NCBI GenBank assembly: GCA_043803405.1
Contig: JAZDKB010000023.1
Span: 1-64,000, forward strand
Length of the DNA stretch: 64,000 nt
Direction: 5' to 3'
Source of the DNA: Spirochaetota bacterium
GTDB lineage: Bacteria > Spirochaetota > UBA4802 > JAFGDQ01
Of this stretch, positions 5,160 through 32,897 are shown piece by piece. The translations under genes were made by a program, and so were the position numbers. The first letter of the stretch is position 1. Each line of letters opens with the position of its first letter. The notes beneath the pieces are model-generated. The model had not been told where the DNA came from. It made no database searches and saw only the letters and a program-made list of their open reading frames with translations.

Positions 5160-6008
5160 ATGGAAGGAAATTTAACTTATGACAGGCATGAGCGGCATTT
5201 TACTTTCGGATATACGGCAAAAGAATATTTTAACATTAAGGGCTTTAAACAAAAGATCGATATGTTCATTGAAAAGGAAAATTATATAATAAAAACCGCT
5301 TCCGGCACGGATGATGTTCTTAAAGCCATAAAGCTCCGCACCGAAGTTTTTTTAGAGGAACTTAATAATACAAATATTAATGATATTGATATTGATGAAT
5401 ACGATATATTATCCGACCATCTACTTCTGATTGACAGAAATAAAAATGAGGTTGTCGGTACTTACAGATTTAATTCAAACCTGTTTTCCAATTCGTTTTA
5501 TTCCGAAACGGAATTCGATATATTCAACATAATGACTGTGCCGGGCATTAAGCTTGAGCTAGGAAGGGCATGCATTAAAAAAGAGTACAGGGGCGGGCTT
5601 GCGCTGTCACTTTTATGGACAGGCCTGGTAGCTTATATAAAAAGAATAGACGCGGATTATCTTTTCGGATGTTCAAGCTTTCATGTCCCGGATAAACTTG
5701 AAGTTGCCAGGTTGTATAAACTATTTATTGAAAAACATTTTACGGATGAAAGTAAAATGGTTTTTCCGAGAGAAGAATTTAAAATAAAAGACCTGGATAT
5801 TTTTTTATTGCAGGTGGAAAACTCAGGAAAAAAAGAATATCTTTTGTCCCAGCGTTTTATTCCTGCTTTAGTCAAAGGCTATATTTCCGCAGGAGCAAAG
5901 ATATGCGGACAGCCTATTTACGACCCGGATTTTAACTGCTACGATTTTTTTACACTCCTGGATTTAAAGGACTTAAACCAGGAATATTTAAAAATGGTGA
6001 CAATGTAA
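5160..6008 (+). CDS. GNAT N-acyltransferase, OlsB (ornithine lipid)-like
   Basis: LRTEVF, DIDEYD, VVGTYR, FYSETEF, LELGRACI, YLFGCSS, DPDFNCYD motifs. Confidence 0.8.
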   Translation: MEGNLTYDRHERHFTFGYTAKEYFNIKGFKQKIDMFIEKENYIIKTASGTDDVLKAIKLRTEVFLEELNNTNINDIDIDEYDILSDHLLLIDRNKNEVVGTYRFNSNLFSNSFYSETEFDIFNIMTVPGIKLELGRACIKKEYRGGLALSLLWTGLVAYIKRIDADYLFGCSSFHVPDKLEVARLYKLFIEKHFTDESKMVFPREEFKIKDLDIFLLQVENSGKKEYLLSQRFIPALVKGYISAGAKICGQPIYDPDFNCYDFFTLLDLKDLNQEYLKMVTM

Positions 6009-9788: not shown

Positions 9789-10382
9789 TTAATAGCAGAT
9801 AGCGGAAAAAGTAAGGAAAACAGAGTGCGAATTTGTACGTGTTTTTGTTCCGTCTTCTTCGAGCCTTGTTTTTGTAAACATGTAATTAATGTTTAAACCG
9901 TAATGTCCGGAAAATTCGTAGCCAGCTCCTGCATATAGACCATGGCCGTAATCAAGTTCCTGGCCTTTTTCAAATGGCGCGTAGAAGTGGGCAAACCCTG
10001 CTCCGAGACTCAGAAAAAACGAAGGGGATCCGTCATTGAAATAATATGAGATGCCGAGCGGGCCCATTGAATTTACGAATACCGCTTTTTCTCCGGATAA
10101 TTTTTTTGATGAGATCCATAATTCTTTATTATTATAATAAATCAGGAATTTATTTGTAAGGCCGTATCCGATCATTATGTCCAGAGCAAATGCTTTTGCG
10201 TATCTGGCGTTGGCAGTTTCTGTGTGCCTGTCCTTTGTGTCCCGGTCGTATCTCATTAGTCCGCCGCCTACAGCTCCGCCTAGTATGAACCCTTCCCTGA
10301 AGCCATTAAAGGCATAAGCAGACTGTGCTTTCAGGAAAAAAAGGGTGATAAAAAGTATCGTGATAATTTTATTTATAGGCAT
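9789..10382 (-). CDS. Outer-membrane beta-barrel protein
   Basis: Signal peptide; alternating aromatic beta strands (AGAGYEF). Confidence 0.7.
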   Translation of the reverse strand: MPINKIITILFITLFFLKAQSAYAFNGFREGFILGGAVGGGLMRYDRDTKDRHTETANARYAKAFALDIMIGYGLTNKFLIYYNNKELWISSKKLSGEKAVFVNSMGPLGISYYFNDGSPSFFLSLGAGFAHFYAPFEKGQELDYGHGLYAGAGYEFSGHYGLNINYMFTKTRLEEDGTKTRTNSHSVFLTFSAICY

Positions 10383-10429
10383 TGTTCATCCCCGGTGCCG
10401 GCTCATTATTAATTTTAATTATCCGGCTT

Positions 10430-10479
10430 TTTATAAAAAATTATTAAAAATATCATAAAAATCTTATAAAGAGTTAGTA
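10430..10479 (+). promoter_or_regulatory. 11-bp-period hexamer array (Pho-box-like) between divergent barrel genes
   Basis: TTTATA/TTATTA/ATCATA/CTTATA/TTAGTA at 10430, 10441, 10452, 10463 and 10474. Confidence 0.45.
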
Positions 10480-10564
10480 AGTTGCTTCCGATTTCCTGAC
10501 CGGTTTTAAGTGCCGTAAAGTATTAGTAATTCCACAACACTGTCTAGATATTGTTAAAACAAGT

Positions 10565-11146
10565 ATGCCCGGATTCATTAAACCATTATTATATTTTATA
10601 TTGATTTTGTTATTACTGTTTTCACTCGATCTTAAAGGTGAAGCAATACCGGCAAATTCACTTTCGGTTTACAACGGTTTTTTGACTCCAAAGGATGTGT
10701 CGGAAATGGTTTCAACTCCGCCTTCGTTTAAAAAGGAGTACTTCGCAGCTGCGGGGTTTATGCGGCGGCTGTTTTTATTAAGTGAAAGCATATCTGTTGA
10801 AGGCGAAGGCCAGGCTGTATTTCATTACGGTTCCCAATATTTTAAGGAGTATGTGATCGCTCCCTACGTCCGTTACACAAATATCGTAGATAATAAATTC
10901 GCTATAACCGGTGCCATAGGCGACGGTATTTCGTACACTGAAAAAATATTGAATCATGAACACAGAAGAGACAGAAAAAGCACGCGTTACATAAACTATC
11001 TCGGAATTGAAGCGACATTCGGAACTGTAAACTGCCCTCTTTCCTTGGTAATACGCCTGCATCACAGATCAAGCGCTTACGGGCTTATAATGAACGGAAA
11101 TACGGATTCGAATTTTATCTGTTTAGGAATAAGATATGCGTTTTAA
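10565..11146 (+). CDS. Small OM beta-barrel, PagL/acyloxyacyl-hydrolase-like
   Basis: RLHHRSS motif near the C-terminus; ends GIRYAF. Confidence 0.55.
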   Translation: MPGFIKPLLYFILILLLLFSLDLKGEAIPANSLSVYNGFLTPKDVSEMVSTPPSFKKEYFAAAGFMRRLFLLSESISVEGEGQAVFHYGSQYFKEYVIAPYVRYTNIVDNKFAITGAIGDGISYTEKILNHEHRRDRKSTRYINYLGIEATFGTVNCPLSLVIRLHHRSSAYGLIMNGNTDSNFICLGIRYAF

Positions 11147-11218: not shown

Positions 11219-12397
11219 TCAGCAATTTAAGGCTTCTATCGGCAGCATTCCGGATGCCTTACGTGCAGGGTAAAGCCCGAATATTATTCCTACCATTACG
11301 GAGAAAAAGAAAGATACCAGCGCATAAATATAAGAAAAGAAGAACGGCCAGTTAAGAAAATATACTATTATTACATTAATAATAATTCCTATTACAAGAC
11401 CTATTACTCCGCCAATCGCGCTTAGTATGGACGACTCGATTATGAATTGATTCATTATGTCCGCTTTTTTTGCGCCTACGGCAAGCCTTATGCCGATCTC
11501 CCTTGTCCTTTCCGTGACTGCTGCGTGCATTACATTCATAATGTTTATTCCACCGACTACCAGCGATATGACAGTAGCCAGCCCCAGCAGAAGTCCCAGA
11601 ATGCCGATAATTGCATCAGCTGTCTGCATCTGATCTTTGCTCGATGTTATTTTTATGTGTTTTAATTTATCGAAAGAATTGTTGTTAATATAACTGAAAT
11701 AATTGCGTATTGTCGAGATCGCCGGCGAAATGGATTCAGCTGTGGAAACCGAAAGAAGTATTTCCCTGAACGATGAACTGTTTGTAACTCTTTGTCTCAT
11801 TGTCGTATACGGGATAACTGCAATGTTGTCGAAGTCCCTTCCCGAAAGCGCTTTGCCTTTTGGTTCAAGCACGCCTATGACCCTGAACGGTATGCCGTTC
11901 AGGTGAACTATTTTTCCCACGGGGTCGGTATTGCCGAATAAAATGTTTCTCTGGCTGTTTCCTATAACAGTCACTTTCTGAAATGTATTTAATTCGAGTT
12001 CGGAAAAAATTCTTCCTTTTGCAATAGCCCAGTCCTGTATTAACAGGAAATCGGCTGTAGTTCCGAATACACGCGAAGCTATTTGCCTGTTAACATATTT
12101 AATCGAAACAGATCCATCAGGAAAAATTGGCGTAATTAAATTAATATTCTGTATATATGTTTTTAATTTATTGTAATCAAGCAGGGAAAAGTCTTTAGCT
12201 TCATTAAGGACGGATATTGCGTTTTTCCCGTATGTGTATATTTTGCTTTTAACCACATATTTGGCGCTTTGAATTAAGCCTATAATCGATATAAAGGAGG
12301 ATACGCCAATTATGACACCAAGCATTGTCAGTCCGCTTCTCATCTTATTCTTGCGGATTTCCTGAATAGCGTGTCTTAAAAAATAAAAAAATCGCAT
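11219..12397 (-). CDS. MacB/FtsX-family ABC permease
   Basis: LTMLGVIIG, GGINIMNVM, VTERTREIGIRLAVGA, GLYPARKA. Confidence 0.92.
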   Translation of the reverse strand: MRFFYFLRHAIQEIRKNKMRSGLTMLGVIIGVSSFISIIGLIQSAKYVVKSKIYTYGKNAISVLNEAKDFSLLDYNKLKTYIQNINLITPIFPDGSVSIKYVNRQIASRVFGTTADFLLIQDWAIAKGRIFSELELNTFQKVTVIGNSQRNILFGNTDPVGKIVHLNGIPFRVIGVLEPKGKALSGRDFDNIAVIPYTTMRQRVTNSSSFREILLSVSTAESISPAISTIRNYFSYINNNSFDKLKHIKITSSKDQMQTADAIIGILGLLLGLATVISLVVGGINIMNVMHAAVTERTREIGIRLAVGAKKADIMNQFIIESSILSAIGGVIGLVIGIIINVIIVYFLNWPFFFSYIYALVSFFFSVMVGIIFGLYPARKASGMLPIEALNC

Positions 12398-12422: not shown

Positions 12423-13661
12423 TTACAGAGCCCGGATTTCCTCATAACTGGATTTGTATCGATCAGTCTGAAAGATTTTTTGCTTTGAAGCTATATCATC
12501 AAATATTTCCAGAAGATAATCTATGTGCCTGTCTTCGTGTGTCGACATAAAGCTGAGCCTTAAAAGCTGTTTACTGTGCGGCACTGCCGGGGAAATAATG
12601 GCGTTCACAAAAATTCCTTTTTCAAAAAGGGTTTTCCACAAACGGAAGGTCAATAAGTCGTCTCCTATTATTACTGGTATTATGGGTACTATTCCGTCTG
12701 GAACATTGTAGCCCATTTTCTTTAATTCGGTTCTGACTCTTTTTTGAACCGCGTAAAGTCTGTCCATGCGGTGGGGTTCTTCCCTGATTATTTCAAGCGT
12801 TTTTTTCACTGTGGCTGTCTGTGCGGGCGTCATGCTCGCGCTGAATATCAACGCAGGCGAATGATGCTTAATATATTCGATAACAGGTTTGCAGGCAGCT
12901 ATAAATCCGCCGAGCGATGCGAAACTTTTGCTGAATGTGCCCATAATCATATCCGCTTTGTCGTTCAGCCCGAATGATTGTGCTGTGCCCCGGCCGTTTC
13001 CGAGCACTCCAAGCCCGTGAGCGTCATCTATCATTATGCGCGCGTTGTATTTTGAAGCTATTCTCGCAAGGTCGGGCAGGTTTACGATGTCCCCCATCAT
13101 GCTGAAAACGCCGTCTGTTACGATCAGCTTTCCGTAATCTGCAGGAAGCTTAGAAAGCTTATTTTCGATATCCTTCATGTCGTTATGCCTGTATTTAACC
13201 ACAGCATCCCTGCCTATTGTCCCCTTAACTATAAGAGCGCCCTGGAATATACTGGAGTGATTTTCCTTGTCGCAAAGCAGAACATCCTTTCGTCCCATAA
13301 GCGGCGTTATGGCTCCCTGGTTTGTCTGAAAGCCTGTGCTGAAAAGCAACGCCGCTTCCTTGCCTAGGAAAGCCGCAAGCATTTCCTCAAGTTCAGTATG
13401 AATATCGTAACTCCCGTTTAAAAGCCTGGAGCCGGAACAGCCTGTACCGTATCTTGTTATTGCCTGCCTGGCTGCTTCCTTTACGCGCGCGTCGTCCGTA
13501 AGCCCCAGATAGTTATTTGAGCCTGCCATAATTACTTTTTTGCCGGCCATTGTCACCACCGGCCCCTGGTTCTCGGATATGCCGCAAAAATACGGGTAAC
13601 AGCCCATATCCCTTAATTCCTTGTGACGCGCGAAATCTATGCATTTATTAAATATATCCAT
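12423..13661 (-). CDS. spt: Serine palmitoyltransferase (AONS-family PLP enzyme)
   Basis: YPYF, GSNNYLGL, GSRLLNG, DDAHG, MGTFSKS (PLP Lys), RLSFMSTH; context of KDSR-like and bCerS-like genes. Confidence 0.85.
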   Translation of the reverse strand: MDIFNKCIDFARHKELRDMGCYPYFCGISENQGPVVTMAGKKVIMAGSNNYLGLTDDARVKEAARQAITRYGTGCSGSRLLNGSYDIHTELEEMLAAFLGKEAALLFSTGFQTNQGAITPLMGRKDVLLCDKENHSSIFQGALIVKGTIGRDAVVKYRHNDMKDIENKLSKLPADYGKLIVTDGVFSMMGDIVNLPDLARIASKYNARIMIDDAHGLGVLGNGRGTAQSFGLNDKADMIMGTFSKSFASLGGFIAACKPVIEYIKHHSPALIFSASMTPAQTATVKKTLEIIREEPHRMDRLYAVQKRVRTELKKMGYNVPDGIVPIIPVIIGDDLLTFRLWKTLFEKGIFVNAIISPAVPHSKQLLRLSFMSTHEDRHIDYLLEIFDDIASKQKIFQTDRYKSSYEEIRAL

Positions 13662-13741
13662 CGGATTTTACCTTGCTTTCTCGGCACAGAAGTCGAGTTA
13701 TTAAAAAATATTATGACAATCTGCCATATTTTACTTTCAGC

Positions 13742-14566
13742 TTAAGCTTTTTTTGATAATGATTTGTTGATTATATGATCCATTATTGGCGGCGTTAGCC
13801 GTTTAATAAGGTAAGAAAGTTTTACCTTAAATCCCGGCAGAATAATGAATTGATTTTTTTTAATGCCTTTAAGCAGCTTACGGGCAATATATTGAGGCTT
13901 TAAAGGTTTTATGTTGCCGGATATAAGCCTTGTTTCTTCAGGTTTCATTAAGTTCTCGGCATGAAAACCCGGCGTATCGGTATCGGGCGGGCATAGAACC
14001 GACACCCGTATGCCATACTGCTTTACTTCGCTTCTTAATGCTTCGGAAAATCCCATCATGGCGAATTTGGAAGCGCAGTAATCCGTGTAACCGAATAATC
14101 CAAGATATCCTCCCATAGATGACGTATTCACTATATGGCCGCCTTTTTTTTTCATAGCCGGGAGAAGAGCTGATATGATGTTCCATATCCCGAAAAAGTT
14201 CACTTTAAAGGTCTCTTCCAGTTGATGAAATGTAATATTCTCAAAATAATCGGGCAGGGCGCGCCCTGCGCAGTTTATCAGCAAATCAGGAGCCCCGAAT
14301 TTAGCTGTCGCCTTTTTCATTACTTTTTTTATCTGAGCGATATCGGTCACATCAAGCTGTATGGAAGATACGCGGTTGCTCACAGGGCTTTTCATCCTTC
14401 TAATTTCGTTTTCCGCATAAGTTAGCAAACTTTGATTTCTCGCAAAAATAATAACATCAGCTCCCTTCGATGCCAGCAGCATGGATGCTGCCAGGCCTAT
14501 TCCGCTTGAACCTCCTGTGACAAACGCCGTTTTTCCGATAAATGAATTCATATATTGATAAATCAA
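13742..14566 (-). CDS. 3-ketodihydrosphingosine reductase-like SDR (ATG start probably 14551)
   Basis: [8 protein letters not shown], YCASK, and [24 protein letters not shown] matching the KDSR/Tsc10 signature. Confidence 0.8.
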   Translation of the reverse strand: [274 protein letters not shown]

Positions 14567-14803
14567 TTAAGAACCTGTTTCGTTATTAATCCGCCTAAAC
14601 AGGTGCTTACTGATAGAACGCTAATTTAACGACTGATCTATTGATCAGGCTGTAAATAACCGGTTTTTTAATCGTAAAATATCATGGATGATGATAAAAT
14701 ATTTATTTGGGAATTATAAATATTATGTTTAATAATTAAATATGCTTTGGGTCGTAGTATTAATACGATTTCGCTATGGGTTAGACACAAGAGGATGGAT
14801 CAA

Positions 14804-15961
14804 TCAGCCTATTTTTTTCTCATATAATCTGTAAGTTTTGTATATTTCGCACTTTAAACGTTTTAACGCGTTTAATAATCTTGTATTGGTTTCAACGACC
14901 ATGCAGCAATCCGATGATTCATAACCCATTGTCGTTCCGGTCTCAATGGTTTTTAAATAAAATACGGTATCGATCATTTTTCTGCGATGTTCCGGTAAAA
15001 CTCCCATAATTATTGTGCGCAGCCTGTTTGTGGATTTTATCATTTTAAGGACTTTAGGCAGCTGCCATGGGTACATCCTTCCGTTTAAATATTTCATCGC
15101 CGGGCTTGTATCAGGTATGGACACTATAAAGCCGACTGTTTCCCCGTCCTTTTCGGCGAAAATAGTAAGCTCAGGGATGATGATCATTGATAATTCTTTA
15201 AAAAGTTCGTCAAACTGCCTGTCAGTTAAAGGCAGGTGCCCCCAGTTGCTTTCCCATGCCTTGTTGAATATTGTTTTTATATCCTGTGCCCGTGTTTTTA
15301 TCTCGCTTTTTTTTAATGTGGTAAAAGTAACATCTATCTTTTCCATAAGACTGTTCCGGACACGGTCAAGGAAGGGTTTGTAGTCTTCTATGTCTTTTAC
15401 CAGCACGCAATGCCAGTCCGCGCATTTAATGAACCCGCAGGCTGAAACAAAATCCTTGTAATAGGGAGCGTAATGACCCAGGCCTGTTACAGGAAGAACG
15501 TTTTCGCCGTGAACTTCGAATCCTATCTGGTCATATATGGAAAAGTTCTGCGGGCCGTTTATTTTGCTTTTCCCTCTGGATAACAGCCAGTCTTCAGCTG
15601 CGGTAAAAAGCGCTCGCGCAACATCAATATCATTAATTGATTCGAAAAATCCGAAAAAACCCGTTTCCTTGTCGTATTTTTCTTCGTATAATCTGTTGAT
15701 ATGCGCAGAAATTCTTCCTGATGGCTTTCCGTTTTTATAAGCAAGGAAATATACGGCTTCGCCGATTTCGAAAAAATATCCTTTCTTAGGATCGAGAAAT
15801 TTTTTCTGTTCTTTGATGATGGGCGGGACCCATGCAGGGTCATTTTCATAAAGACCGGCAGACCACGGCAGCATTATGAATTCTTTCAGCATCGATTTTG
15901 TGGTAACCTTCTTTACCGTTACGGTTCCCGTATTCCGGATTTTTAAATTATTCTCAAACAT
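14804..15961 (-). CDS. bcerS: GNAT-type bacterial ceramide synthase-like protein
   Basis: DPAWVPP, GRISAHIN, GFFGFFES, FNKAWESNWG, MGVLPEHR, KTYRLYEK; next to spt. Confidence 0.75.
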   Translation of the reverse strand: MFENNLKIRNTGTVTVKKVTTKSMLKEFIMLPWSAGLYENDPAWVPPIIKEQKKFLDPKKGYFFEIGEAVYFLAYKNGKPSGRISAHINRLYEEKYDKETGFFGFFESINDIDVARALFTAAEDWLLSRGKSKINGPQNFSIYDQIGFEVHGENVLPVTGLGHYAPYYKDFVSACGFIKCADWHCVLVKDIEDYKPFLDRVRNSLMEKIDVTFTTLKKSEIKTRAQDIKTIFNKAWESNWGHLPLTDRQFDELFKELSMIIIPELTIFAEKDGETVGFIVSIPDTSPAMKYLNGRMYPWQLPKVLKMIKSTNRLRTIIMGVLPEHRRKMIDTVFYLKTIETGTTMGYESSDCCMVVETNTRLLNALKRLKCEIYKTYRLYEKKIG

Positions 15962-16102: not shown

Positions 16103-18013
16103 TTAGCGCGAGTCACCTCTGTTTTTGCCTGGCTGTATTTTAAATATTTGTACATCAAAATAGCCCAGTCCTATAGTTTTAAAAAGACTATCGGGATTAA
16201 AATATTGCTTATAATGAGTGAAAATATTTTTTTCAAAAGTAGTTCCCGGGCTTACTGCAAAATATACAGGCGCGTCATTTTTATATACGGATAGGCTGCC
16301 TTTTTTGTCCGCTGAAACAGGGATTTCTTTTCCGTGGATCAGGTCTTCAAGCAAAGAAGCATTGTATCTTAAATCCTTCTGAACTATAATGGCCGGGTTT
16401 TTGCTCTCAATGACGAGTCCGGCCGACCAGCTGCCTGCCACAACGGCATTGGGTTCAATCTCCATGCTCAGCTCTTTTGATATGTTTATCATTTTGTTCT
16501 CATGGAATAGCGCCCATTTGCCATATTGAAAAAGCTGTATTATCAAAATAAGTATAATGAGCGCATAAGGCAGCCTGCTGTAACTTAAAATTTTACGCAT
16601 GTATTTCTTTTTAAAAATTATATAAATAAGACATGCTGCTGAAATAAAAACGCAGCCGCATATAAGTATCAACAGGTAATCCGGGAAACCGGACTCCGCT
16701 TCCCTATATATCCAGTGCATTAATGCTTTTTTTGATTTGAATGGAACGACTTGAAATGCCAAAGTAATTATGACATACACAGACGCGAGTACTGATGTTG
16801 CCAGCTTGAAAATACCGAACAGCTTACCCTGTTTATTTAAAATAAAAAGTTTTAATTCATCGTCTTTTAAGCATGTAACTGACCGGCTGCACAGTATTAC
16901 GAGCGGTATGCTGATGAGCATATAATAACGGGAAGGATGATATTCCAGCAGGGTCAGCATCAGGAAGCCGAATATGAGCCACGAGGACAGTATAAAGTCC
17001 GTGTTTTTTATTTTTGGATCATTCAAATATTTTTGAAAGGAATAAATCGCATAAATAATTGCAGTAAAAAAAGTTAAAGGCTGCAGAAAGACAGCTTCAA
17101 TGAACAGGGCTTTGCCAATCATCAAATAAATAGGATCAAAATCAGGGAATATTTCAATGAGCGCACTTATAAAAGAGATCTTATTAAGTATTCCTTTATC
17201 GAATAATGAATCTACTAATTTGATATGGGCGAAAATAATATAAAATATCCCGAAAATAAGCAATATCCTGCTGAATTGTTTTTTCAGTTTTTTAGAACTG
17301 TAATGAAAATATTTATTTAAAAATATTATTATCAGGCAGGGTAAAACCGCTGCAACAGCCAGCAATACGGATTTTTTTATGAAAAAAGCTGAAGCCAGCG
17401 TCAGGGTTCCGGTTAAAATAAGAATTATTCTACGGAAAAGAATTTTATTTGTGAGGGATTTTTTTGAATCCGTATTATCCCTGAAATCTGCAAATGCTTC
17501 AGTGAATGCGAAGAGGGCAGCCATTAAATAAAAGTTAAGATGCGTTTCATAAAAACCAATCCTGTTGTACATTATTAGAAAATAATTCGCAGCATATAGA
17601 ACCGAAGATAAATTAGCGCAATCTTTACCATAATTTCTCTTAATAAAAAAGTACAACAGCAGAAGCGTAAACATGGAATAAATAACAGACAATATCCGTA
17701 TCGAAAAAAAATTTACACCAAGAAGTTTAAAAACAAGCGCGTATGTGTATACTGAAAGCGGGCTTTGATTCTTCCAGCCAGGATACTCGTCCAGGGGCGT
17801 CCATTTCCAGTCCCCAAAAAGTTCAAGGTTCCTTGGCTCGTAGATTTTAAATCCTTCGTCCGTATATAATGCTGCGGAAAAGCTCATGTCCCCAGGCGGA
17901 TCTGCATTGATAAAAGCGGTTCTCATCAATGCCGCGATTAAAATTATCGCGAAAATAATATAAATTTTTTTAAAATATATATTATTAAATATTTTTTCAT
18001 ATAAGGCAGGCAT
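16103..18013 (-). CDS. GT-C (ArnT/PMT-like) membrane glycosyltransferase
   Basis: DEG motif after TM1, SPL...RILS, many TM helices, SRYY. Confidence 0.75.
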   Translation of the reverse strand: MPALYEKIFNNIYFKKIYIIFAIILIAALMRTAFINADPPGDMSFSAALYTDEGFKIYEPRNLELFGDWKWTPLDEYPGWKNQSPLSVYTYALVFKLLGVNFFSIRILSVIYSMFTLLLLYFFIKRNYGKDCANLSSVLYAANYFLIMYNRIGFYETHLNFYLMAALFAFTEAFADFRDNTDSKKSLTNKILFRRIILILTGTLTLASAFFIKKSVLLAVAAVLPCLIIIFLNKYFHYSSKKLKKQFSRILLIFGIFYIIFAHIKLVDSLFDKGILNKISFISALIEIFPDFDPIYLMIGKALFIEAVFLQPLTFFTAIIYAIYSFQKYLNDPKIKNTDFILSSWLIFGFLMLTLLEYHPSRYYMLISIPLVILCSRSVTCLKDDELKLFILNKQGKLFGIFKLATSVLASVYVIITLAFQVVPFKSKKALMHWIYREAESGFPDYLLILICGCVFISAACLIYIIFKKKYMRKILSYSRLPYALIILILIIQLFQYGKWALFHENKMINISKELSMEIEPNAVVAGSWSAGLVIESKNPAIIVQKDLRYNASLLEDLIHGKEIPVSADKKGSLSVYKNDAPVYFAVSPGTTFEKNIFTHYKQYFNPDSLFKTIGLGYFDVQIFKIQPGKNRGDSR

Positions 18014-18072: not shown

Positions 18073-19329
18073 TTATGCGCTTATTGAAAGAGCATCCGCT
18101 TCGGTTACATGCTCGCTTCGCAGATTTTTCTTTTCGGTATTTTCTTTGAAAACTTTTATATACTCTTTAACCATTTTGTCCCAGGAATAGTTATCGTTGG
18201 TGAATTTTTTTGCCTGCTCGCCGAACTTTCTGAACGAGACAGGGTCGGATAACGATTTGGTGATAAAGTTTATCCACGCATCTGCGTTGCCGGGCTCCAG
18301 CAGAAATCCGTTCCTGCCATTTACGATCGCGTCAGTTATACCTTCCAGTTTAGAAGCGGCAACAGGCAGACCGCATACTGCTGCTTCAAGTGCCACAAGC
18401 CCGAAACCCTCAGCGTCGCCGCTGACTTTTATGTTCGGCATAACAAACAAATCCGAGTGATGGAGAATCTGTATCATTGAATCAAAGCCCTGTATACCAA
18501 GAAAAAATACCCTTTTTTCGAGGTTTCTTCTTTTAATGGCATCGATTATTTTCGGCTTGTCTTCTTCAACAGCAAATAAAGATCTGATCTGCCGCGACAG
18601 GGATGGAGGTATATATTTCAGAATTGAATGAAGTTTTGAATTATTATGATTTTCAGCTCCTATTATCAGGTAAATAATTTCATCATCAAGCACAGTCATT
18701 ACATTTTCAACAAACCATGAAAAGCCTTTGCGGGTTACAGCCCTCCCTATTGAGACCAGTATTTTTTTTTCTTTAAGTGAGATGCCTAGCTGATTCTCCA
18801 GTTTTTTTCTGAAATCATCCTGCCTGGCAATATTACCTATATTGCCCTCAACGCCGTTGCGGATTGTGAATATTTTTTCAGGATCCATCCCTCTTTTTAT
18901 GCATTCGATCGCTGTGGAACTGCTCACAGGGATAAGGCCGTCAAAGTTTTTAAATTTGCTCACAATATATTTTTGAAAGAGTTTATTAGGGAAAACCACA
19001 TCAAGACCGTGCAAAGTTACGAATATGGGGATGTCGGTTATTTTCTTTAATAATAAACCCACTACAGCCATTAAACCGTCATTTAAATGTATAAAGGAGA
19101 TGCCGGGATTATCTCTTAATATTTTTTTTACGTTTGGTATTACGGAAAAAAAGAATTTTATCCTGCTTGTTCTTCCATCGTATATTATTCGTTTTACGTT
19201 ATATTCCTGCGATATTCCTTCTATCAGTTCATAGCTTTGTTTTTCCATTCCGCCTATTGAAGGCGGGTATTTATGAGTTATAAATAGTGGCTGCATTTGC
19301 GTAACCTTCGGATTCATTTTCTTTTTCAT
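18073..19329 (-). CDS. GT4 glycosyltransferase
   Basis: YPPSIGGME, GRAVTRKG, EGFGLVALEA. Confidence 0.9.
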   Translation of the reverse strand: MKKKMNPKVTQMQPLFITHKYPPSIGGMEKQSYELIEGISQEYNVKRIIYDGRTSRIKFFFSVIPNVKKILRDNPGISFIHLNDGLMAVVGLLLKKITDIPIFVTLHGLDVVFPNKLFQKYIVSKFKNFDGLIPVSSSTAIECIKRGMDPEKIFTIRNGVEGNIGNIARQDDFRKKLENQLGISLKEKKILVSIGRAVTRKGFSWFVENVMTVLDDEIIYLIIGAENHNNSKLHSILKYIPPSLSRQIRSLFAVEEDKPKIIDAIKRRNLEKRVFFLGIQGFDSMIQILHHSDLFVMPNIKVSGDAEGFGLVALEAAVCGLPVAASKLEGITDAIVNGRNGFLLEPGNADAWINFITKSLSDPVSFRKFGEQAKKFTNDNYSWDKMVKEYIKVFKENTEKKNLRSEHVTEADALSISA

Positions 19330-20365
19330 CTTTTATCTTTAAATTGTGTAACCTTGTAATCAGTATAAACGGTATCATCCCTAAAAGTATCCAGAATATC
19401 TGCCGCGCTCTTTTTATTATTGATACAACGACCCACGCGTATGGTTCGCTGATGTTCGCGAGCTGGAGCATAAGCTTGTTGGCGTATTCTTCTACGCCGA
19501 TCTGCCCGGGCACAAAAGAGCCAAGGCTTTTGAATACCATAACGCCGATTTCAATTCCTATGCATTCAATGAACGATATCCTGATCTTTATGAAATACAG
19601 GATCAGGTAAAATTCCGCTGCTCCCGCAATGCGGTGGAAAAGTGAAAGGAAATACGCTGCCCAGTATTTTGTTTTTTTTTCGTTGTAAAACGCGTTAAGG
19701 CATTCGTTTGCTTCGCAAAGTCTGGTATGCGCGTTTGTCATCCATGTCCATTTAAAACCGGAAATAAGCCTGCAAACCGGATACAGAATCCCTTTTTGAT
19801 TTTTGAAAAAATAGAACGATATAAGCATAAGTAAAATACTGATAACCGAAATCGCGGTTATAGTTATAAATGAAGGGAAAAAGTCGAAATATTCGAAAAA
19901 TATGACAAAAAAAATGACTATCAAATGCAGGCCGGAAATGATTATAAGGAACCTGGACATTGTTATTGAGCTCAGGCTTTCTGCCGTGGATAATCCGTGT
20001 TTTTTCAGGTAATAAAGCTTTAATGTGTCGCCTGCGAGCACATTTGCGGGATTTATCTGCGCAAAGCTTTCCCCGATTAGCCGTACAAAGAACAATTTAA
20101 ATACGCTTATTTTATGTTCCGATTCGTGCAGGCACAGTTTCCATGCTATTGAAGCCAGGAAGTAAGAAAATCCCGTAACGGCTATGATGAACGCGAAACG
20201 CCAGTTGATCCTCAGCATTTGTTTTGAGATATTTTCAAGCTCGGAATTGGCTATGAATAAGCAGACCATCAAAAGGCCGAAACCCAGAAATAATATCTTG
20301 AGCAGGCGGGAATTTTTAATTGTGAATATCGGAATTTTACTTTGTTTTTGCTTCATATTGTCCAT
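19271..20365 (-). CDS. UPF0104/lysylphosphatidylglycerol-synthase-TM flippase-like protein
   Basis: INPANVLAGD, VPGQIGVEE, ~8 TM helices. Confidence 0.8.
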   Translation of the reverse strand: MDNMKQKQSKIPIFTIKNSRLLKILFLGFGLLMVCLFIANSELENISKQMLRINWRFAFIIAVTGFSYFLASIAWKLCLHESEHKISVFKLFFVRLIGESFAQINPANVLAGDTLKLYYLKKHGLSTAESLSSITMSRFLIIISGLHLIVIFFVIFFEYFDFFPSFITITAISVISILLMLISFYFFKNQKGILYPVCRLISGFKWTWMTNAHTRLCEANECLNAFYNEKKTKYWAAYFLSLFHRIAGAAEFYLILYFIKIRISFIECIGIEIGVMVFKSLGSFVPGQIGVEEYANKLMLQLANISEPYAWVVVSIIKRARQIFWILLGMIPFILITRLHNLKIKDEKENESEGYANAATIYNS

Positions 20366-21572
20366 GCGTATAATTCCCGGTCAGCTTGCCGTAGTAGTTC
20401 AGCAAATCTTCGGACAGGAACTCCCATCTTTGTTTAAGAGCATATACCCTTGCATTTTTAACGATTTTCCTTGCGCGTTCCGGATTATTCAGCAGGTATA
20501 GTATTTTTGAACAGAAATCGGCGGCATTTTCCGGCTGAGCGAGCAAGCCTGTTTTCATGTTTTCTATTATCCCCAAAGGCCCGCCTTTGGCAGCTGCAAC
20601 GACAGGCAGGCCGGAAGACATTGCTTCAAGGACAACATTTCCGAAAGTCTCGGTAATGGAAGGGAAAACAAAAATATCGCTGGAAGCGTAAATCCTGGCA
20701 AGGTCGTCTTTGATGAGATTCCCGGTAAAAACAGCTCCGGGCATCTTCTTCTTCAGATAGTTTAGCTTCGGCCCGTCGCCTGTAACGACCAGTACGACAT
20801 CATTTCTTTCTTTCTTCAGGTAATTATTTATTTCGATAAGGGTTTTTAAGTCTTTTTCCATAACAATGCGGCTAACGAATAAAATACTTTTTTTATCTTT
20901 GCCGGTGATGCCTTCCATATATCCTGTATCCCGTTTTGCTGGATTATATAACGAGTAATCCACACCTCTTCCCCAGATAAAAAGACGCTTTTCATCAATA
21001 CCGGCGTCAACCATTTCATCTCTAATAGGACGCGTGGGCACTAGGGCGGCATCGCATTGATTATAAAACCACAAAATTATTTTCCATACAATAGTTTGAA
21101 TAAAAGCACTCAACATGAAAGAAAATCTGAAATAATATTTTATATATGCCGCAAAATGAGTGTGATATGTGCCTATGAGCGGGAGATTATTGAATTTCGC
21201 GTATTGTACCGCATACTTTCCGAGAAACGACGGCGTTGTAAAATGGATTAAATCCGGGCTGAAATTATCGATTTCCTGCTTCAGCGTTTTCGATATTTGC
21301 GGCAGGCCAAGACGGTATGTCTTGTTCAAAGGAAAAGTGATATAAGGACACTGTAAAACTTTATATCCGAATGAATTCTCCGGCGGATACGGAGTAATAA
21401 AAAGAAATTCATAATTACTTCCTTTAATATGTCTAAGGAAGTTAAATATGGTATTGCTTACACCGTCAATGTTTTCTTTCAGCACATCGGTAAACATTGC
21501 GACTTTAATTTTTTTGTTCTTTGTGTTACTTGTTTTTATAGAGTCAATATTTAATATATTTCTGATAAACAT
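20337..21572 (-). CDS. GT4 glycosyltransferase (glycolipid synthase-like)
   Basis: IDGVSNT, YHTHF, WGRGVD, ETFGNVVLEAMSSGLP. Confidence 0.92.
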   Translation of the reverse strand: MFIRNILNIDSIKTSNTKNKKIKVAMFTDVLKENIDGVSNTIFNFLRHIKGSNYEFLFITPYPPENSFGYKVLQCPYITFPLNKTYRLGLPQISKTLKQEIDNFSPDLIHFTTPSFLGKYAVQYAKFNNLPLIGTYHTHFAAYIKYYFRFSFMLSAFIQTIVWKIILWFYNQCDAALVPTRPIRDEMVDAGIDEKRLFIWGRGVDYSLYNPAKRDTGYMEGITGKDKKSILFVSRIVMEKDLKTLIEINNYLKKERNDVVLVVTGDGPKLNYLKKKMPGAVFTGNLIKDDLARIYASSDIFVFPSITETFGNVVLEAMSSGLPVVAAAKGGPLGIIENMKTGLLAQPENAADFCSKILYLLNNPERARKIVKNARVYALKQRWEFLSEDLLNYYGKLTGNYTHGQYEAKTK

Positions 21573-21929: not shown

Positions 21930-23618
21930 ATGAAAAAAAAATTAAAATATATAATATTGGTTTTGCCTTTTCTTTTTATTGCGACAGGTCTGGTTTTAAA
22001 TTTAATTATTGATTTGCAAACTTATGACGGGTTCCCGCCCGAGAGATTTTCGGTAAAATATGATGATAACGATGTTCCGGTAATCGGGAATATTTTTAAA
22101 CCGAAAAATAAATATGATAAAAAATACCCTGTAATTATTTATTTTTCCGGTTTTATGGCTCAAAAGGATATTGATCCCAGAATACCTGTTGAATTCTGCA
22201 GAAGAGGCTTCCTTGTCCTGACAATAGATATACACGGGCATGGGGAAATGGACGGCTCTTTCGGCAGTTCAATTATTACGGATGTGAAAAATGCGATACG
22301 ATATGTAAAGACGAATTTAAAGGAAATTGCGGATGTAAACAGGATATGCATTCTGGGGCATTCGGCAGGCGGGTACGCAGCGCTGGGAGCGGGAACATCC
22401 TCCGTTGCGGCTGCGGCAGTGTGGGCCGCGCCTTCATATTATGATGAGAAAATCATTTATAAAATGAACAGGCCCCTTAAGCTTTATAACCCGTCAGCCT
22501 CAGTGGAATACCTGAAAGAGCTGAATAAAAGCGCCCCGTATTATTCTTTAAGCAAAAATAATTCAGACAATCTGTTAATTATTCATCATGAATCCGATCC
22601 TGTTGTTTCCATTAAACAGGCGGAATCCATACAGCGTAAAACCGGCGCCAGGCTAATAAAGATCGGCAATGAAAAGCGGGCAGGTATATTTGCTTTTATT
22701 AATGCTCCATTGCTTAATCATTATTTGATTCACGATTCGGTTTTAATCGATACGATAAACTGGTTCGAGACAAAACTGGATTTAAAACGCGTGAAGGTTG
22801 ATGAAAATTATCATTTTTTATATCTTTGCAAGTTTTACTTTATAATAATTTTTTTTACCGGATCATTTCTCAGCGTATTCAGCCTGATTTATATTTTAAG
22901 CAATAAAAAAATCGCAGAGTCTGTTACAATAGAATCGGATAATATAAATAAATCAACCGGATACAAATACCAGTTTTTATCACTTTTCTCTCCTTTAATA
23001 TTATTCGGCAGCCTGTTTATGTCTCACCAGTATGTCAGGTCGCTTGAAAAAATAAGATTTAATGAATATTTTCTTGTTCCCAGTGCGATCCTTTTAGTAT
23101 TTATGATTCTTTATCTCGTTTTAAATAAAATTAATATCATAAGTATTTTAGATCTGGAAGATATCGGTAAGTCTTTGACAATAGGCCTTTATTTTATAAT
23201 AATTAATTTTCTTTTTGTATGGAATTTTAAATTCTTTGTATTATATCCCCATAAATTTTTTTATTATTTAGTATCGTTTATTATCACTTTCCCCTGGTTT
23301 TTTTTAAGCGGACAGATTATTTTTCAATTTTCCGGCAATCGCATGCTGGAATTTGTCACAGGGAAAACAGGGATCAATCCGAACAGATTTTTAGTTTTAG
23401 GAAATGTAATTCCTGTTGTAACAGGCATAATATATTATTTAATTTTCCTTTTAATAATGCCCAAGGTAATTGCTGTTATTATAGTTGTTTTTATTCTTCT
23501 AATTCTTTTCCTGTATTCCAGTTACATGATTTACAGACGCTATTCGATAACAGGCACGGCTGTTACGAACAGTATAATAGCATCGTTCTTTTACGGGACA
23601 TGTTACTGGTTTTTTTAA
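21930..23618 (+). CDS. Alpha/beta hydrolase with C-terminal multi-TM region
   Basis: DIHGHG, GHSAGG, SDPVV; hydrophobic C-terminus. Confidence 0.8.
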   Translation: MKKKLKYIILVLPFLFIATGLVLNLIIDLQTYDGFPPERFSVKYDDNDVPVIGNIFKPKNKYDKKYPVIIYFSGFMAQKDIDPRIPVEFCRRGFLVLTIDIHGHGEMDGSFGSSIITDVKNAIRYVKTNLKEIADVNRICILGHSAGGYAALGAGTSSVAAAAVWAAPSYYDEKIIYKMNRPLKLYNPSASVEYLKELNKSAPYYSLSKNNSDNLLIIHHESDPVVSIKQAESIQRKTGARLIKIGNEKRAGIFAFINAPLLNHYLIHDSVLIDTINWFETKLDLKRVKVDENYHFLYLCKFYFIIIFFTGSFLSVFSLIYILSNKKIAESVTIESDNINKSTGYKYQFLSLFSPLILFGSLFMSHQYVRSLEKIRFNEYFLVPSAILLVFMILYLVLNKINIISILDLEDIGKSLTIGLYFIIINFLFVWNFKFFVLYPHKFFYYLVSFIITFPWFFLSGQIIFQFSGNRMLEFVTGKTGINPNRFLVLGNVIPVVTGIIYYLIFLLIMPKVIAVIIVVFILLILFLYSSYMIYRRYSITGTAVTNSIIASFFYGTCYWFF

Positions 23619-23656
23619 TTTGACAGCCTGACAGTATTTTTGCAGAAAAAGTTAAA

Positions 23657-24154
23657 ATGATTAAAAAAATACATACATTGCTTATTTTTGTTTTATTTTT
23701 TCAGGCCGGACATTTGTACGCGGAAAAGACAGTGGATGTTTTTGTTATCCGCAGCAATGTGATTAAAAGCTGGATACAATATTCAATTAAGCTGACCGGT
23801 GATTTTAACTTTATCGGTAATGAACCTGTATTCGGATTCAGAAAAAGGCCGGGCGGGAGCAGGCGCGAGTTGAGTTATTTTGAAAGCCGATATTATGGAA
23901 TTGAATCCCAGAGAATAATAAATGACTCGACGATTGAACTGGGATTAAAAGCTTTTCCTTCAAGGAAGGTAATCATTGAAATTAAAAACAGAACGGTTAT
24001 TTCATATATAGACATAAACGGAAAGAAATGCGTTTTTATTGAAGCCATGATATATGCTAAAAAAGGATTGCTTACAAGTTACACCGGATACGCAGATATT
24101 ATCGGCATGGATATTGAATCAAAAACAAAAGTATACGAGCGAATTAATAAATAA
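23657..24154 (+). CDS. Exported DUF4833-like protein
   Basis: Signal peptide; ELSYFESRYYGI, YIDINGKK, GMDIESKTKVYERI resemble DUF4833 (from memory). Confidence 0.55.
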   Translation: MIKKIHTLLIFVLFFQAGHLYAEKTVDVFVIRSNVIKSWIQYSIKLTGDFNFIGNEPVFGFRKRPGGSRRELSYFESRYYGIESQRIINDSTIELGLKAFPSRKVIIEIKNRTVISYIDINGKKCVFIEAMIYAKKGLLTSYTGYADIIGMDIESKTKVYERINK

Positions 24155-26158: not shown

Positions 26159-27220
26159 ATGATTAATTTTGCGCTTGTAGGATGCGGCAGGATTGGAAAG
26201 CGCCATGTAGATCTGCTGGGGAACAATCAGATAAAAAACGCGCGCCTTGCCGCTGTTTGCGACGTAGTGGAAGAACGCGCAAAAGATTTCGGTTCCAGGT
26301 ACAATGTGCCTTATTATACCGATATGGACCGCATGATGGAAACCGAAAAAAGCATAGATGCCGTTTCGATCCTGACGCCAAGCGGCCTGCACGCAGGCAA
26401 TGTTATAAATCTCACAAAATATAAAAAGCATATTCTTGTTGAAAAACCGATGGCTCTCACCTTAGACGATGCCGATGCCATGATCGCGCAATGTGCGGAA
26501 AACAACATTAAGCTGTTTGTCGTAAAGCAAAATCGTTTTAATGTTCCGGTAAGGATGCTGCGGAACGCGCTTACTGAAGGGCGTTTCGGCAAACTGATAT
26601 TCGGGACAGTAAGGGTGCGCTGGTGCAGAAGGCAGGACTATTACGATCAGGACTCCTGGCGCGGCACCTGGGCTTATGACGGAGGCGTATTCGCAAACCA
26701 GGCAAGCCATCATATTGATCTGCTTGAATGGATGATGGGCGAGGTGGATTCCGTGTTCGCGAAAAGCACTACTGCTCTTGTTAATATTGAAACCGAGGAC
26801 ACAGGCGTAGTAATCCTCAGGTTCAGAAACGGCGCCCTGGGAGTTATTGAAGCTACTACAGCCGCGCGTCCGAAAGACCTTGAAGGTTCCATATCCATAC
26901 TGGGTGAATACGGTACAGTGGAGATCGGAGGTTTTGCTGTAAACGAAATGAAGGTATGGACATTCGTTCCTGAGAGGCCCGAGGATAAGGAAATTTTAAC
27001 AAAATATTCGGTGAATCCTCCCAATGTATACGGCTTTGGGCATAAAGAATATTACGATGATGTCGTAGACAGCATAATCAATAATACGAAAGCTCTTGTG
27101 GACGGCCTTGAAGGAAGAAAAAGCCTTGAGCTGATTTCGGCAATATATGAATCCGTTGAAACCGGCCGCGAAGTATATCTCAGGTTTAAACCTCAGAGAT
27201 GCAAGCTGGGTATATTATGA
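26159..27220 (+). CDS. Gfo/Idh/MocA UDP-sugar 3-dehydrogenase (WlbA/WbpB/GnnA-like)
   Basis: [29 protein letters not shown]. Confidence 0.88.
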
Positions 27221-27810
27221 TAGCATCGACAGCCTTAGTTTATCCGGATGTAAAGCTGGGGGAGAACTGCATCATCGAAGATTATTGTATAATAGGAGTG
27301 CCTGTTGCAGGGCATAAAAAAGTGGAAACTATCATAGGGGATAATGCCGTTATCCGTTCACATACTGTAATATATGCCGGGAATATTATAGGAAACAATT
27401 TTATGACCGGTAATAAGGCGAATATCAGGGAGCTCAATGAAATCGGCAATAATGTAAGCATTGGCACCATGAGCGTAATAGAATATAATACGAAGATATC
27501 CGATAATGTAAGGATTCATTCCCATGCTTTTATTCCCGAGTTCACGGTTCTGGGACGCGGTTGCTGGATCGGGCCAAATGTTGTAATTACTAACGATCGT
27601 TATCCCAAATCTCCTGCAGATAAAAAGAAGCTTCAGGCAGTTAATGTAAACGAAAATGCGAAGATAGGTGCAAACGTAACGATTTTACCGGGAGTTATTA
27701 TCGGTAAAAATTCGCTTGTTGGCGCAGGAAGCGTTGTGACCCATAATGTAAAAGAAAATTCAATTTACTCAGGCAATCCCGCCAGGTTTTTTCGCAATAT
27801 TCATTATTAA
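27217..27810 (+). CDS. Hexapeptide N-acetyltransferase (WlbB/WbpD-like)
   Basis: Hexapeptide repeats, TNDRYP, GNPAR; ATG at 27217 overlaps the upstream stop. Confidence 0.88.
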
Positions 27811-27939
27811 TAATCAGTCTTAAGTTTGATCTGAAGCGGGTTATGCGCGGAGTTACCGTAGTATTCTAATTTAAATATTATAATTACGCAGCCGGATTTC
27901 ATTGTAAATAAGAATAATATAGAATTTAGAGGATAAGAA

Positions 27940-29040: not shown

Positions 29041-29060
29041 TATAATGAAGAGATATTTTT

Positions 29061-30017: not shown

Positions 30018-30034
30018 TTCTGGCAGGGTTAACA

Positions 30035-32760: not shown

Positions 32761-32897
32761 GCAGGTTTCCGTCTCCGGAAACTGCGTTAGAACCTTTATT
32801 GTTATATAATGTATTTCATCAGGAAATTGTGAGACTAAAGTTCATTGGTTTTGGGATGCCCTCTTAATATATATTAAAAAAAATTATGAGTTAAGGT

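Follow-up and report, generated by a model that had tools for sequence, protein, structure and literature searches.

A KDSR-family reductase gene in a probable glycosphingolipid operon of a Spirochaetota bacterium

In a stretch of 64,000 nucleotides from a Spirochaetota bacterium (assembly GCA_043803405.1, contig JAZDKB010000023.1, positions 1 to 64,000 of the forward strand; hereafter, the window), we found a run of eight co-oriented minus-strand genes (21572-11219) which is probably a glycosphingolipid operon. In its core, a gene for a short-chain dehydrogenase/reductase (SDR) of the KDSR/Tsc10 family lies between a gene for an N-acyltransferase of the bCerS/YghO family and one for an enzyme of the serine palmitoyltransferase (SPT) clade, and no gene for CerR, the reductase of the Caulobacter ceramide pathway, was found in the window or in the 94%-complete host genome. 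With a probability of roughly 55%, we propose that the run encodes a cytoplasmic (glyco)sphingolipid route in which SPT, an NADPH-dependent KDSR, bCerS and glycosylation would follow one another in that order, i.e., with reduction preceding N-acylation; each catalytic step, the reaction sequence, the substrates and the functions of the flanking genes are predictions. The window SDR would thereby take the role that CerR has in other bacteria.

The eight-gene run and its core enzymes

An original prediction had placed a module of three genes at positions 12423..15961. The three consecutive minus-strand open reading frames (ORFs) that it named are indeed present (15961-14804, 385 aa; 14566-13742, 274 aa from a TTG start; 13661-12423, 412 aa) and make up the core of the run, yet the interval was too narrow for the run of eight, as five further co-oriented genes had been missed (two GT4 glycosyltransferases, a flippase-like protein, a GT-C glycosyltransferase and a MacB-type permease). 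In run order, and with G002 denoting a genome from another genus of the host's family and G033 and G034 two f5/g19 genomes, the features are as follows.

20337..21572, minus strand: GT4 glycosyltransferase opening the run, 411 aa, with ceramide or diacylglycerol as candidate acceptor (PF00534/PF13439; best NCBIfam matches are glycolipid synthases, below cut-off)
19271..20365, minus strand: LPG_synthase_TM (flippase-like) membrane protein, 364 aa (PF03706, 107 bits; TIGR00374 over its cut-off)
18073..19329, minus strand: second GT4 glycosyltransferase, 418 aa (PF00534/PF13692; 64% identity to the G002 copy, 53% to those of the G033/G034 spt operons)
16103..18013, minus strand: polytopic GT-C (PMT_2 family) membrane glycosyltransferase, 636 aa (PF13231; about 10 hydrophobic segments)
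14804..15961, minus strand: bCerS/YghO-family N-acyltransferase, 385 aa, presumed ceramide synthase (YghO homology; weak PF00583)
13742..14551, minus strand: KDSR/Tsc10-family classical SDR, 269 aa from the ATG at 14551 (274 aa from the TTG at 14566), predicted soluble 3-keto-sphingoid reductase (residues, KDSR clade)
12423..13661, minus strand: SPT-clade alpha-oxoamine synthase (AOS), 412 aa (NF047600, SPT structure 3a2b, tree position)
11219..12397, minus strand: MacB/FtsX-family ATP-binding cassette (ABC) permease, 392 aa, following spt at a distance of 25 bp, possible subunit of a lipid exporter (PF12704/PF02687)

The intergenic gaps along the run, from first to last, were -29, -59, 59, 141, 252, 80 and 25 bp. 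All eight genes were recovered in identical order in G002 at 51-74% identity, the core three with their order kept at 60-74%, and because this order is conserved in another genus of the family, the arrangement is more than chance. Two further genomes of the host's own genus (90% and 93% complete) gave no match for any of the three core genes at the thresholds used. A recent foreign origin found no clear signal in composition (gene GC content of 36-46% versus 39% for the genome), and scans for promoters and terminators stayed at chance levels (40 versus 37 and 12 versus 11, respectively). In four f5/g19 genomes, the PMT gene lies directly upstream of spt and runs into it, and G033 and G034, both of which were read further, carry the whole GT4-LPG_synthase_TM-GT4-PMT block, which ties the upstream glycosylation block to the SPT product independently of the window.

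The pyridoxal 5'-phosphate (PLP) enzyme had been described as SPT-type, in line with which its best NCBIfam match was NF047600 (Bacteroidota-type SPT, 502 bits, versus 358 for BioF, 340 for Kbl and 235 for HemA) and its best PDB match was the SPT 3a2b (398 bits, versus 186 for the cysteate acyltransferase 28eh). A phylogeny against BioF and Kbl had been suggested as a check. In maximum-likelihood trees, the enzyme was sister to Bacteroidota SPTs adjoining CerR-like genes (support 100/99), within a 100/96 clade that also holds E. coli Spt and leaves the Kbl and BioF rows outside; the second of the two SPT trees had eight rows fewer than the first (four of the removed rows were long branches), and HemA was not included. 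An identity as BioF or Kbl is ruled out by the NCBIfam and PDB scores together with the trees, and we assign the protein to the SPT clade, with serine condensation as its predicted reaction.

With regard to the GNAT, for which bCerS-type motifs had been noted, full-length homology was observed with YghO of E. coli BL21 (33% over 368 aa, E 5e-63), and the gene is the sole YghO match in the host genome. Identity to the bCerS proteins of three Desulfobacterota cerR-spt-bCerS operons (L221-L223) was 26-33%, and no PDB or NCBIfam match was obtained. YghO (ECD_02850) is a listed homologue of the Caulobacter acyltransferase (PMC9386255), and the bCerS identity of the window GNAT rests on this comparison and not on Caulobacter bCerS itself. 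The protein is thus a bCerS/YghO homologue as judged by sequence, and N-acylation of a long-chain base is predicted.

The window SDR, whose 269-aa form matches the length of the database protein P0001, shared 43% identity over 227 aa with mammalian KDSR (E 6e-55). It carries the GxxxGxG glycines (G13, G17 and G19), R38, N118, S145, Y158 and K162, all shared with the eukaryotic rows; R38, the basic residue that follows beta-2, indicates NADPH preference by SDR rules. No hydrophobic segment above threshold was found in it. The 24-residue segment quoted in the original prediction was confirmed; in the 269-aa form it spans residues 188-211, in the substrate loop after beta-6. Near-identity with human KDSR had been stated for it: the mammalian KDSRs P0409 and P0410 do share 18 and 19 of the 24 residues, respectively (counted by eye), the human sequence itself not being among those compared. 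Since the segment is widely shared by bacterial homologues, of which many have no SPT gene next to them, it is not in itself proof of substrate.

Neither a CerR-like nor an acyl carrier protein (ACP) gene had been seen in the window, and both observations held. In the host genome, CerR queries from E. coli and Bacteroidota gave no match and a Desulfobacterota query reached E 2e-8 at best. A CerR profile built from 12 Bacteroidota sequences scored four held-out CerRs at 211-399 bits and the best host ORF at 86 bits, the reference CerRs being putative assignments by homology to E. coli epi and, for most, by adjacency to spt; a Phocaeicola record yielded a bCerS homologue and no CerR reference. 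The host has 14 extended-SDR ORFs, most of which were read by eye as nucleotide-sugar enzymes, and a hidden CerR was sought among them; all scored well below the held-out CerRs, the one HpnA-like ORF (C35:25790) reaching 64 bits. Across the 122 genomes of the host's class, which is listed as one order, the best match to the E. coli query was at E 2e-20. The Desulfobacterota loci L221-L223, which hold cerR, spt and bCerS in a row, served as a positive control, and their CerR gene lies directly upstream of spt, in the slot that the SDR occupies in the window. No dedicated ACP or acyl-ACP synthetase gene was found in the operon, including the positions beside the three core genes; in the genome, the best AasR match had 21-25% identity, and AcpR-like matches were weak (E of at least 2e-5) and lay on other contigs.

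Phylogeny of the reductase and its linkage to SPT genes

In a 70-row tree, the KDSR-like clade that includes the window SDR was separated from 10 outgroup SDRs with support of 99/95, and all 12 eukaryotic KDSRs fell inside it; against 23 outgroup SDRs, the grouping had an SH-aLRT of 97, the outgroups being a sample and not all SDR families. Placement within the KDSR clade had been named as a check in the original prediction, which had also called the gene eukaryote-like. The first point was borne out, and the second needs rewording. The eukaryotic rows formed one clade (96/86) nested among bacteria and sister to a cyanobacteria/Chloroflexota group (99/94), the window SDR was placed elsewhere in the family, and a clade of window and eukaryotes was rejected (p-AU 0.0014, approximately unbiased (AU) test), which rules out a recent transfer from a eukaryote. 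The window SDR is therefore assigned, by its position in these trees, to a broad and widespread bacterial family that contains the eukaryotic KDSRs; it is not specifically eukaryote-like and not a captured eukaryotic gene. Many homologues are labelled '3-dehydrosphinganine reductase' by automatic JGI annotation. An identity with the KdsR type of BT_0972 (NF049977) was also considered and rejected (111 bits versus a cut-off of 400). TSC10 (8JAT) was the best PDB match of the C-terminal half of the window SDR and the sixth for the full single sequence, and a family profile returned it as the best single-domain chain, fourth overall.

In both trees, the closest bacterial relatives of eukaryotic KDSR were the cyanobacterial and Chloroflexota proteins P0347, P0353, P0372, P0376, P0389 and P0400. 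Also among those closest to the eukaryotic clade are the KDSR-family copies of the family of G940 and G900, in which two loci (L238:5092-11893 and L239:5004-11808) encode an adenylating ligase, an ACP, a protein of 799 aa and one of 804 aa, the last of which joins an unassigned N-terminus of 400 aa to an SPT-like C-terminal domain.

Five settings link KDSR-family genes to genes for SPT or SPT-like enzymes, and they amount to at least four separate gains on the tree. Beyond the window operon itself (G000 and G002), kdsr-spt tandems were present in all three genomes of family f30, outside the host class (L206:7059-9104, L207:5414-7558 and L233:6980-9025, in G861, G975 and G803, respectively). 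Their best CerR-like ORFs scored 105-132 bits in G861 and G803 (CerRs, 211-399), both of which are single-contig genomes of 99-100% completeness. None of the three genomes gave a bCerS match, so that the tandems point to an unacylated SDR substrate; they may yield free sphinganine or rely on another N-acyltransferase. In family f7, kdsr stands head-to-head with genes for a fatty acyl-AMP ligase (FAAL), an ACP and a divergent AOS, in some loci followed by a second bCerS (L076-L078, L127-L129 and L235-L237; the same block occurs without an adjacent SDR in L130, L131 and L138). The gene also lies directly before a divergent AOS gene in G019. Finally, in the 744-aa protein P0266, an AOS (residues 1-400) that scores similarly on BioF and SPT models is fused to a KDSR-family SDR (470-729); this is a single ENA protein and possibly an assembly or gene-calling artefact, the six loci found being those of distant relatives (30-38%).

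SDR and SPT/AOS genes were at most 5 kb apart in 17 of 25 tabulated genomes, i.e., the 24 genomes outside families f1, f5 and f6 with both matches plus G047, and the DNA was read for 10 of the 17. Within the class, and with the caveat that kin are not independent, the SDR was present in 25 of the 26 genomes with a window-type SPT versus 39 of the 96 without, and in 50 of the 56 with bCerS versus 14 of the 66 without. In samples of 301 Desulfobacterota and 351 Bacteroidota genomes, it was found in 24 and 4, respectively.

Many relatives of the SDR belong to a widespread module (L090:7403-10482, L093:8183-10443, L216 and L217) in which the KDSR-family SDR is accompanied by an OleD/3-beta-HSD-like extended SDR, by a membrane protein of 134 aa that has no Pfam match and, in some cases, by a second SDR, and fusions of the extended and KDSR-family SDRs were also found (P0205 and P0404-P0408). 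This extended SDR was considered as the true CerR; at 150 bits, versus 211-399 for CerRs, it is related to CerR and was not placed in it, which makes the idea improbable. A tblastn search at E 1e-10 gave no match for it in the host genome. With neither this partner nor CerR found in the host, the operon SDR is the best reductase candidate. Membership of the SDR family does not by itself fix the substrate, and it is operon position together with the missing CerR that carries the argument.

Order of reactions and weighing of alternatives

In the proposed pathway, SPT would condense serine with a long-chain acyl thioester to give 3-ketosphinganine; the thioester is probably acyl-CoA, as no dedicated ACP or ligase is linked. 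Sphinganine would then arise in the cytoplasm through NADPH-dependent reduction of the C3 ketone by the soluble KDSR-family SDR, as in the eukaryotic order, and the bCerS/YghO GNAT would N-acylate sphinganine to dihydroceramide. The two GT4 enzymes would add sugars on the cytoplasmic side, passage of the lipid through the inner membrane may be aided by the LPG_synthase_TM protein, and on the periplasmic side the GT-C enzyme may decorate or extend it. The system would thus work like a bacterial ceramide pathway in which CerR is replaced by a KDSR/Tsc10-family member, and would stand outside the canonical Spt-bCerS-CerR system. A hybrid pathway of this kind had been put forward in the original prediction; the enzyme identities and the missing CerR agree with it, while a reduce-first route with a CerS homologue had already been proposed in B. 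thetaiotaomicron and the module is part of a larger operon.

Several known systems resemble this one in part. Like the pathway of Caulobacter crescentus and E. coli BL21(DE3) (AasR, AcpR, Spt, bCerS = YghO/aca, CerR = epi; PMC9386255, PMC11087976), the window clusters an Spt-clade enzyme with a bCerS/YghO homologue; it differs in that no CerR was found, no AcpR or AasR is linked and its SPT belongs to a Bacteroidota-like branch. The CerR of Caulobacter belongs to the extended SDRs and is reported to be periplasmic, whereas the window reductase is a classical KDSR-family SDR without a hydrophobic N-terminal segment. The dedicated ACP and acyl-ACP synthetase of the rhodobacterial tripartite AasR-AcpR-Spt system are likewise not linked in the window. 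According to PMC11087976, bacteria lack homologues of the eukaryotic enzymes apart from SPT, CerR is periplasmic and the order of reactions is disputed. Compared with the eukaryotic pathway (SPT, KDSR/Tsc10/FVT1 and LAG1-type CerS), the reductase is of the same clade (43% identity), with the catalytic residues, cofactor arginine and post-beta-6 motif in common; it lacks the N-terminal membrane anchor, has a shorter C-terminus and does not derive from a eukaryotic gene, the N-acyltransferase is a bacterial GNAT and not of the LAG1 type, and the SPT is a single-gene bacterial enzyme.

A functional precedent is BT_0972 of Bacteroides thetaiotaomicron (PMC9278070; NF049977), an SDR that reduces 3-ketosphinganine and is proposed to do so before a CerS homologue acts, in the order suggested here. 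It is one of seven partial homologues whose identity to eukaryotic KDSR is about 16-30%, its gene lies apart from spt and appears to be essential, and its in vivo role is unclear (PMC9278070, PMC11087976); the window SDR, in contrast, lies in an operon and falls far below the cut-off of the BT_0972 model. A reduce-first order in B. thetaiotaomicron, with CerS homologues acylating sphinganine, was also proposed in bioRxiv 2023.05.23.541633, where the GT4 AgcT was identified as the alpha-galactosylceramide synthase of Bacteroides fragilis. The window GT4s likewise stand beside ceramide genes, and the likeness is one of family only; since GT4s related to AgcT glycosylate diacylglycerol instead (same source), the acceptor of the window GT4s could be ceramide or diacylglycerol. 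The sulfonolipid (capnine) pathway, with CFAT and a 3-ketocapnine reductase (PMC11211663), uses the same chemistry of AOS, SDR reduction and N-acylation; the window PLP enzyme matches SPT much better than it does the solved cysteate acyltransferase, and the capnine reductases, with 21-27% identity to Tsc10, are unclustered.

We favour reduction before acylation on two grounds: the free keto base is the substrate of characterised family members, and there are spt tandems without bCerS. The reverse order, in which bCerS acylates 3-ketosphinganine and the SDR serves as a cytoplasmic CerR substitute on 3-keto-dihydroceramide, or both orders run in parallel, appears rather unlikely. In its favour, deletion of cerR leads to an accumulation of oxidised ceramide in Caulobacter and B. 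fragilis, whose bCerS enzymes act on, and prefer or accept, the keto base (PMC11087976, bioRxiv 2023.05.23.541633), and the window SDR occupies the CerR slot; moreover, such SDRs can be promiscuous, as yeast Tsc10 and distant SDRs also reduce a 3-ketocapnine analogue (PMC11211663). Against it stand the kdsr-spt tandems of the three f30 genomes without a bCerS match, the AOS fusion P0266 and the use of 3-ketosphinganine by characterised KDSR/Tsc10 (PMC9278070). It is quite improbable that the pathway logic holds and the PLP enzyme uses alanine, glycine or cysteate, with 1-deoxysphingolipids or capnine-type sulfonolipids as products. The enzyme is below every NCBIfam SPT equivalog cut-off (NF047600, 502/640; NF047599, 362/500; NF047603, 285/670), and to our knowledge substrate choice in the AOS family is not reliably read from sequence; the reduction of 3-ketocapnine by SDRs (PMC11211663) fits this variant as well. 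The 398 bits to a solved SPT versus 186 to cysteate acyltransferase and the sister position to SPTs adjoining CerR argue for serine, and the co-located glycosyltransferases would presumably require a hydroxyl group at C1, absent from deoxy and sulfonate bases.

A further set of observations weighs against the proposed pathway and concerns the part of the SDR in it, which could be a passenger or act on another lipid or a steroid, as a member of the extended-SDR/KDSR-like/membrane-protein module, the operon then making 3-keto-ceramides or another enzyme performing the reduction. Among the best 30 class loci of SDR homologues, two were spt-adjacent, 22 lay beside an OleD/3-beta-HSD-like extended SDR and 18 beside the 134-aa membrane protein, so most close homologues pair or fuse with the extended SDR and not with SPT. 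No spt gene was found within 1.5 kb in any of 30 Desulfobacterota or four Bacteroidota SDR loci, three named SDR-bearing genomes of these phyla gave no AOS match at 1e-60, and in Desulfobacterota there was no co-occurrence with SPT (SPT-level match, at the E<1e-125 threshold set in the analysis, in 2 of 24 SDR-positive versus 5 of 20 SDR-negative genomes). In the f5/g19 genomes, the shared glycosyltransferase-spt operon has no SDR gene, the latter being encoded at another place in the genome. As the window SDR is nested within homologues not linked to SPT (96/89), it may be a late recruit, and the AOS enzymes of the f7 clusters, G019 and P0266 fall outside the supported SPT clade, which makes these linkages weaker. 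In Foldseek searches with the SDR model (alignment-based fold, pLDDT 96; the single-sequence fold was poor, pLDDT 51), the hydroxysteroid dehydrogenases HSD17B13 (TM 0.83) and 11-beta-HSD1 ranked first, 8JAT not being among the matches listed. Lastly, 252 bp separate the bCerS and SDR ORFs, which leaves co-transcription inferred. Even so, we regard a passenger or otherwise occupied SDR as distinctly unlikely, given the at least four separate linkages to SPT/AOS genes, a host with no match for the partner extended SDR, no CerR and no better reductase candidate found, and a position between bCerS and spt that is kept in another genus at about 60% identity.

The proposed route, with a KDSR-clade gene between bCerS and spt and no CerR found, makes the reaction order directly testable with three short soluble genes. 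We further suggest, as a tentative view, that the bacterial KDSR-family clade including the window SDR may comprise true 3-ketosphinganine reductases in Spirochaetota spt operons and that eukaryotes may have inherited KDSR/Tsc10 from this family. If so, a bacterial source of eukaryotic KDSR would be indicated, and the first two steps of eukaryotic sphingolipid synthesis, SPT and then KDSR, would be bacterial inventions already coupled, even fused, in bacteria. Sphingolipid synthesis would also extend to Spirochaetota, where the route to sphinganine-based glycolipids would, in some members, be fully cytoplasmic and dispense with CerR, and in some dispense with bCerS. Such a route would likewise explain spt-positive genomes with no nearby CerR, a gap raised in a Black Sea study (PMC11334938) that reported Spt-like genes in 38 phyla and suggested non-homologous replacement where CerR is missing; spirochaetes go unmentioned in the main text of that study, and its supplement may list them. 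A hybrid reduce-first order by way of a distant SDR had been proposed in Bacteroides, and BT_0972 was the one bacterial KDSR activity found described in the available texts of the literature searched; the value of the present case lies in a reductase that is a close KDSR relative and repeatedly linked to spt. That literature, in which few subscription journals were covered, contained no report of spirochaete sphingolipid synthesis or of a KDSR-clade gene in a bacterial spt operon, in agreement with the earlier remark that the lineage was possibly not known for sphingolipids.

Flanking genes, host genome and further loci

The first GT4 protein of the run has 63% identity to its G002 copy and 49-51% to copies in spt operons of family f5, and a 34% homologue adjoins a CerR-like gene in the Bacteroidota locus L150. 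The LPG_synthase_TM ORF overlaps both adjoining ORFs and is kept in G002, G033 and G034. The MacB-type permease has a copy in the same place in G002 (58%) and three paralogues elsewhere in the host genome; no such gene lay beside spt in the other class loci whose DNA was read. In the Desulfobacterota control operons (L221:100-4397, L222:5665-9813 and L223:4891-10326), two have an adjoining PAP2_3 membrane enzyme, a possible head-group transferase, and in L223 the three genes are preceded by a PMT_2/ArnT-type glycosyltransferase gene different from that of the window.

Several other genes of the window could bear on envelope lipids. An OlsB-like amino-lipid N-acyltransferase (5160-6008; NF052554, 131 bits versus a cut-off of 350), possibly an ornithine-lipid gene, lies 5 kb from the operon. 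Just past the operon end (9789-11146) are a small outer-membrane beta-barrel gene (weak PF13505) and a gene for a 193-aa protein with no Pfam match, and G002 holds an ORF of similar length at the matching place. Divergent from the operon start (21930-24154) are genes for an alpha/beta-hydrolase with a hydrophobic C-terminal half, which at least is not conserved at that place in G002, and for a DUF4833 protein. A second glycosylation cluster (26159-33944) comprises a GT2, two unannotated proteins and another LPG_synthase_TM protein.

The host genome (3.98 Mb) belongs to the phylum Spirochaetota, in line with which it has three FlaA matches, versus none in 14 control genomes, and the best named homologue of the window SDR carries a Spirochaetota label. 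LpxC is present, so the proposed sphingolipid would not replace lipid A outright. On contig C24 of the host, a separate BioF-like gene is flanked by bioA-like and bioD-like ORFs, as judged by eye. A second AOS, which forms a subfamily of its own (G000:C33:22254-28462 and L134:5974-13306; also in G002 and G003), is followed by a GNAT-like gene, FemAB-like in L134, and by genes for two related 550-aa proteins. Finally, two loci (L132:6598-9837 and L133:3863-7105) encode proteins of 1080 aa in which an unassigned N-terminal part precedes an AOS domain at the C-terminus.

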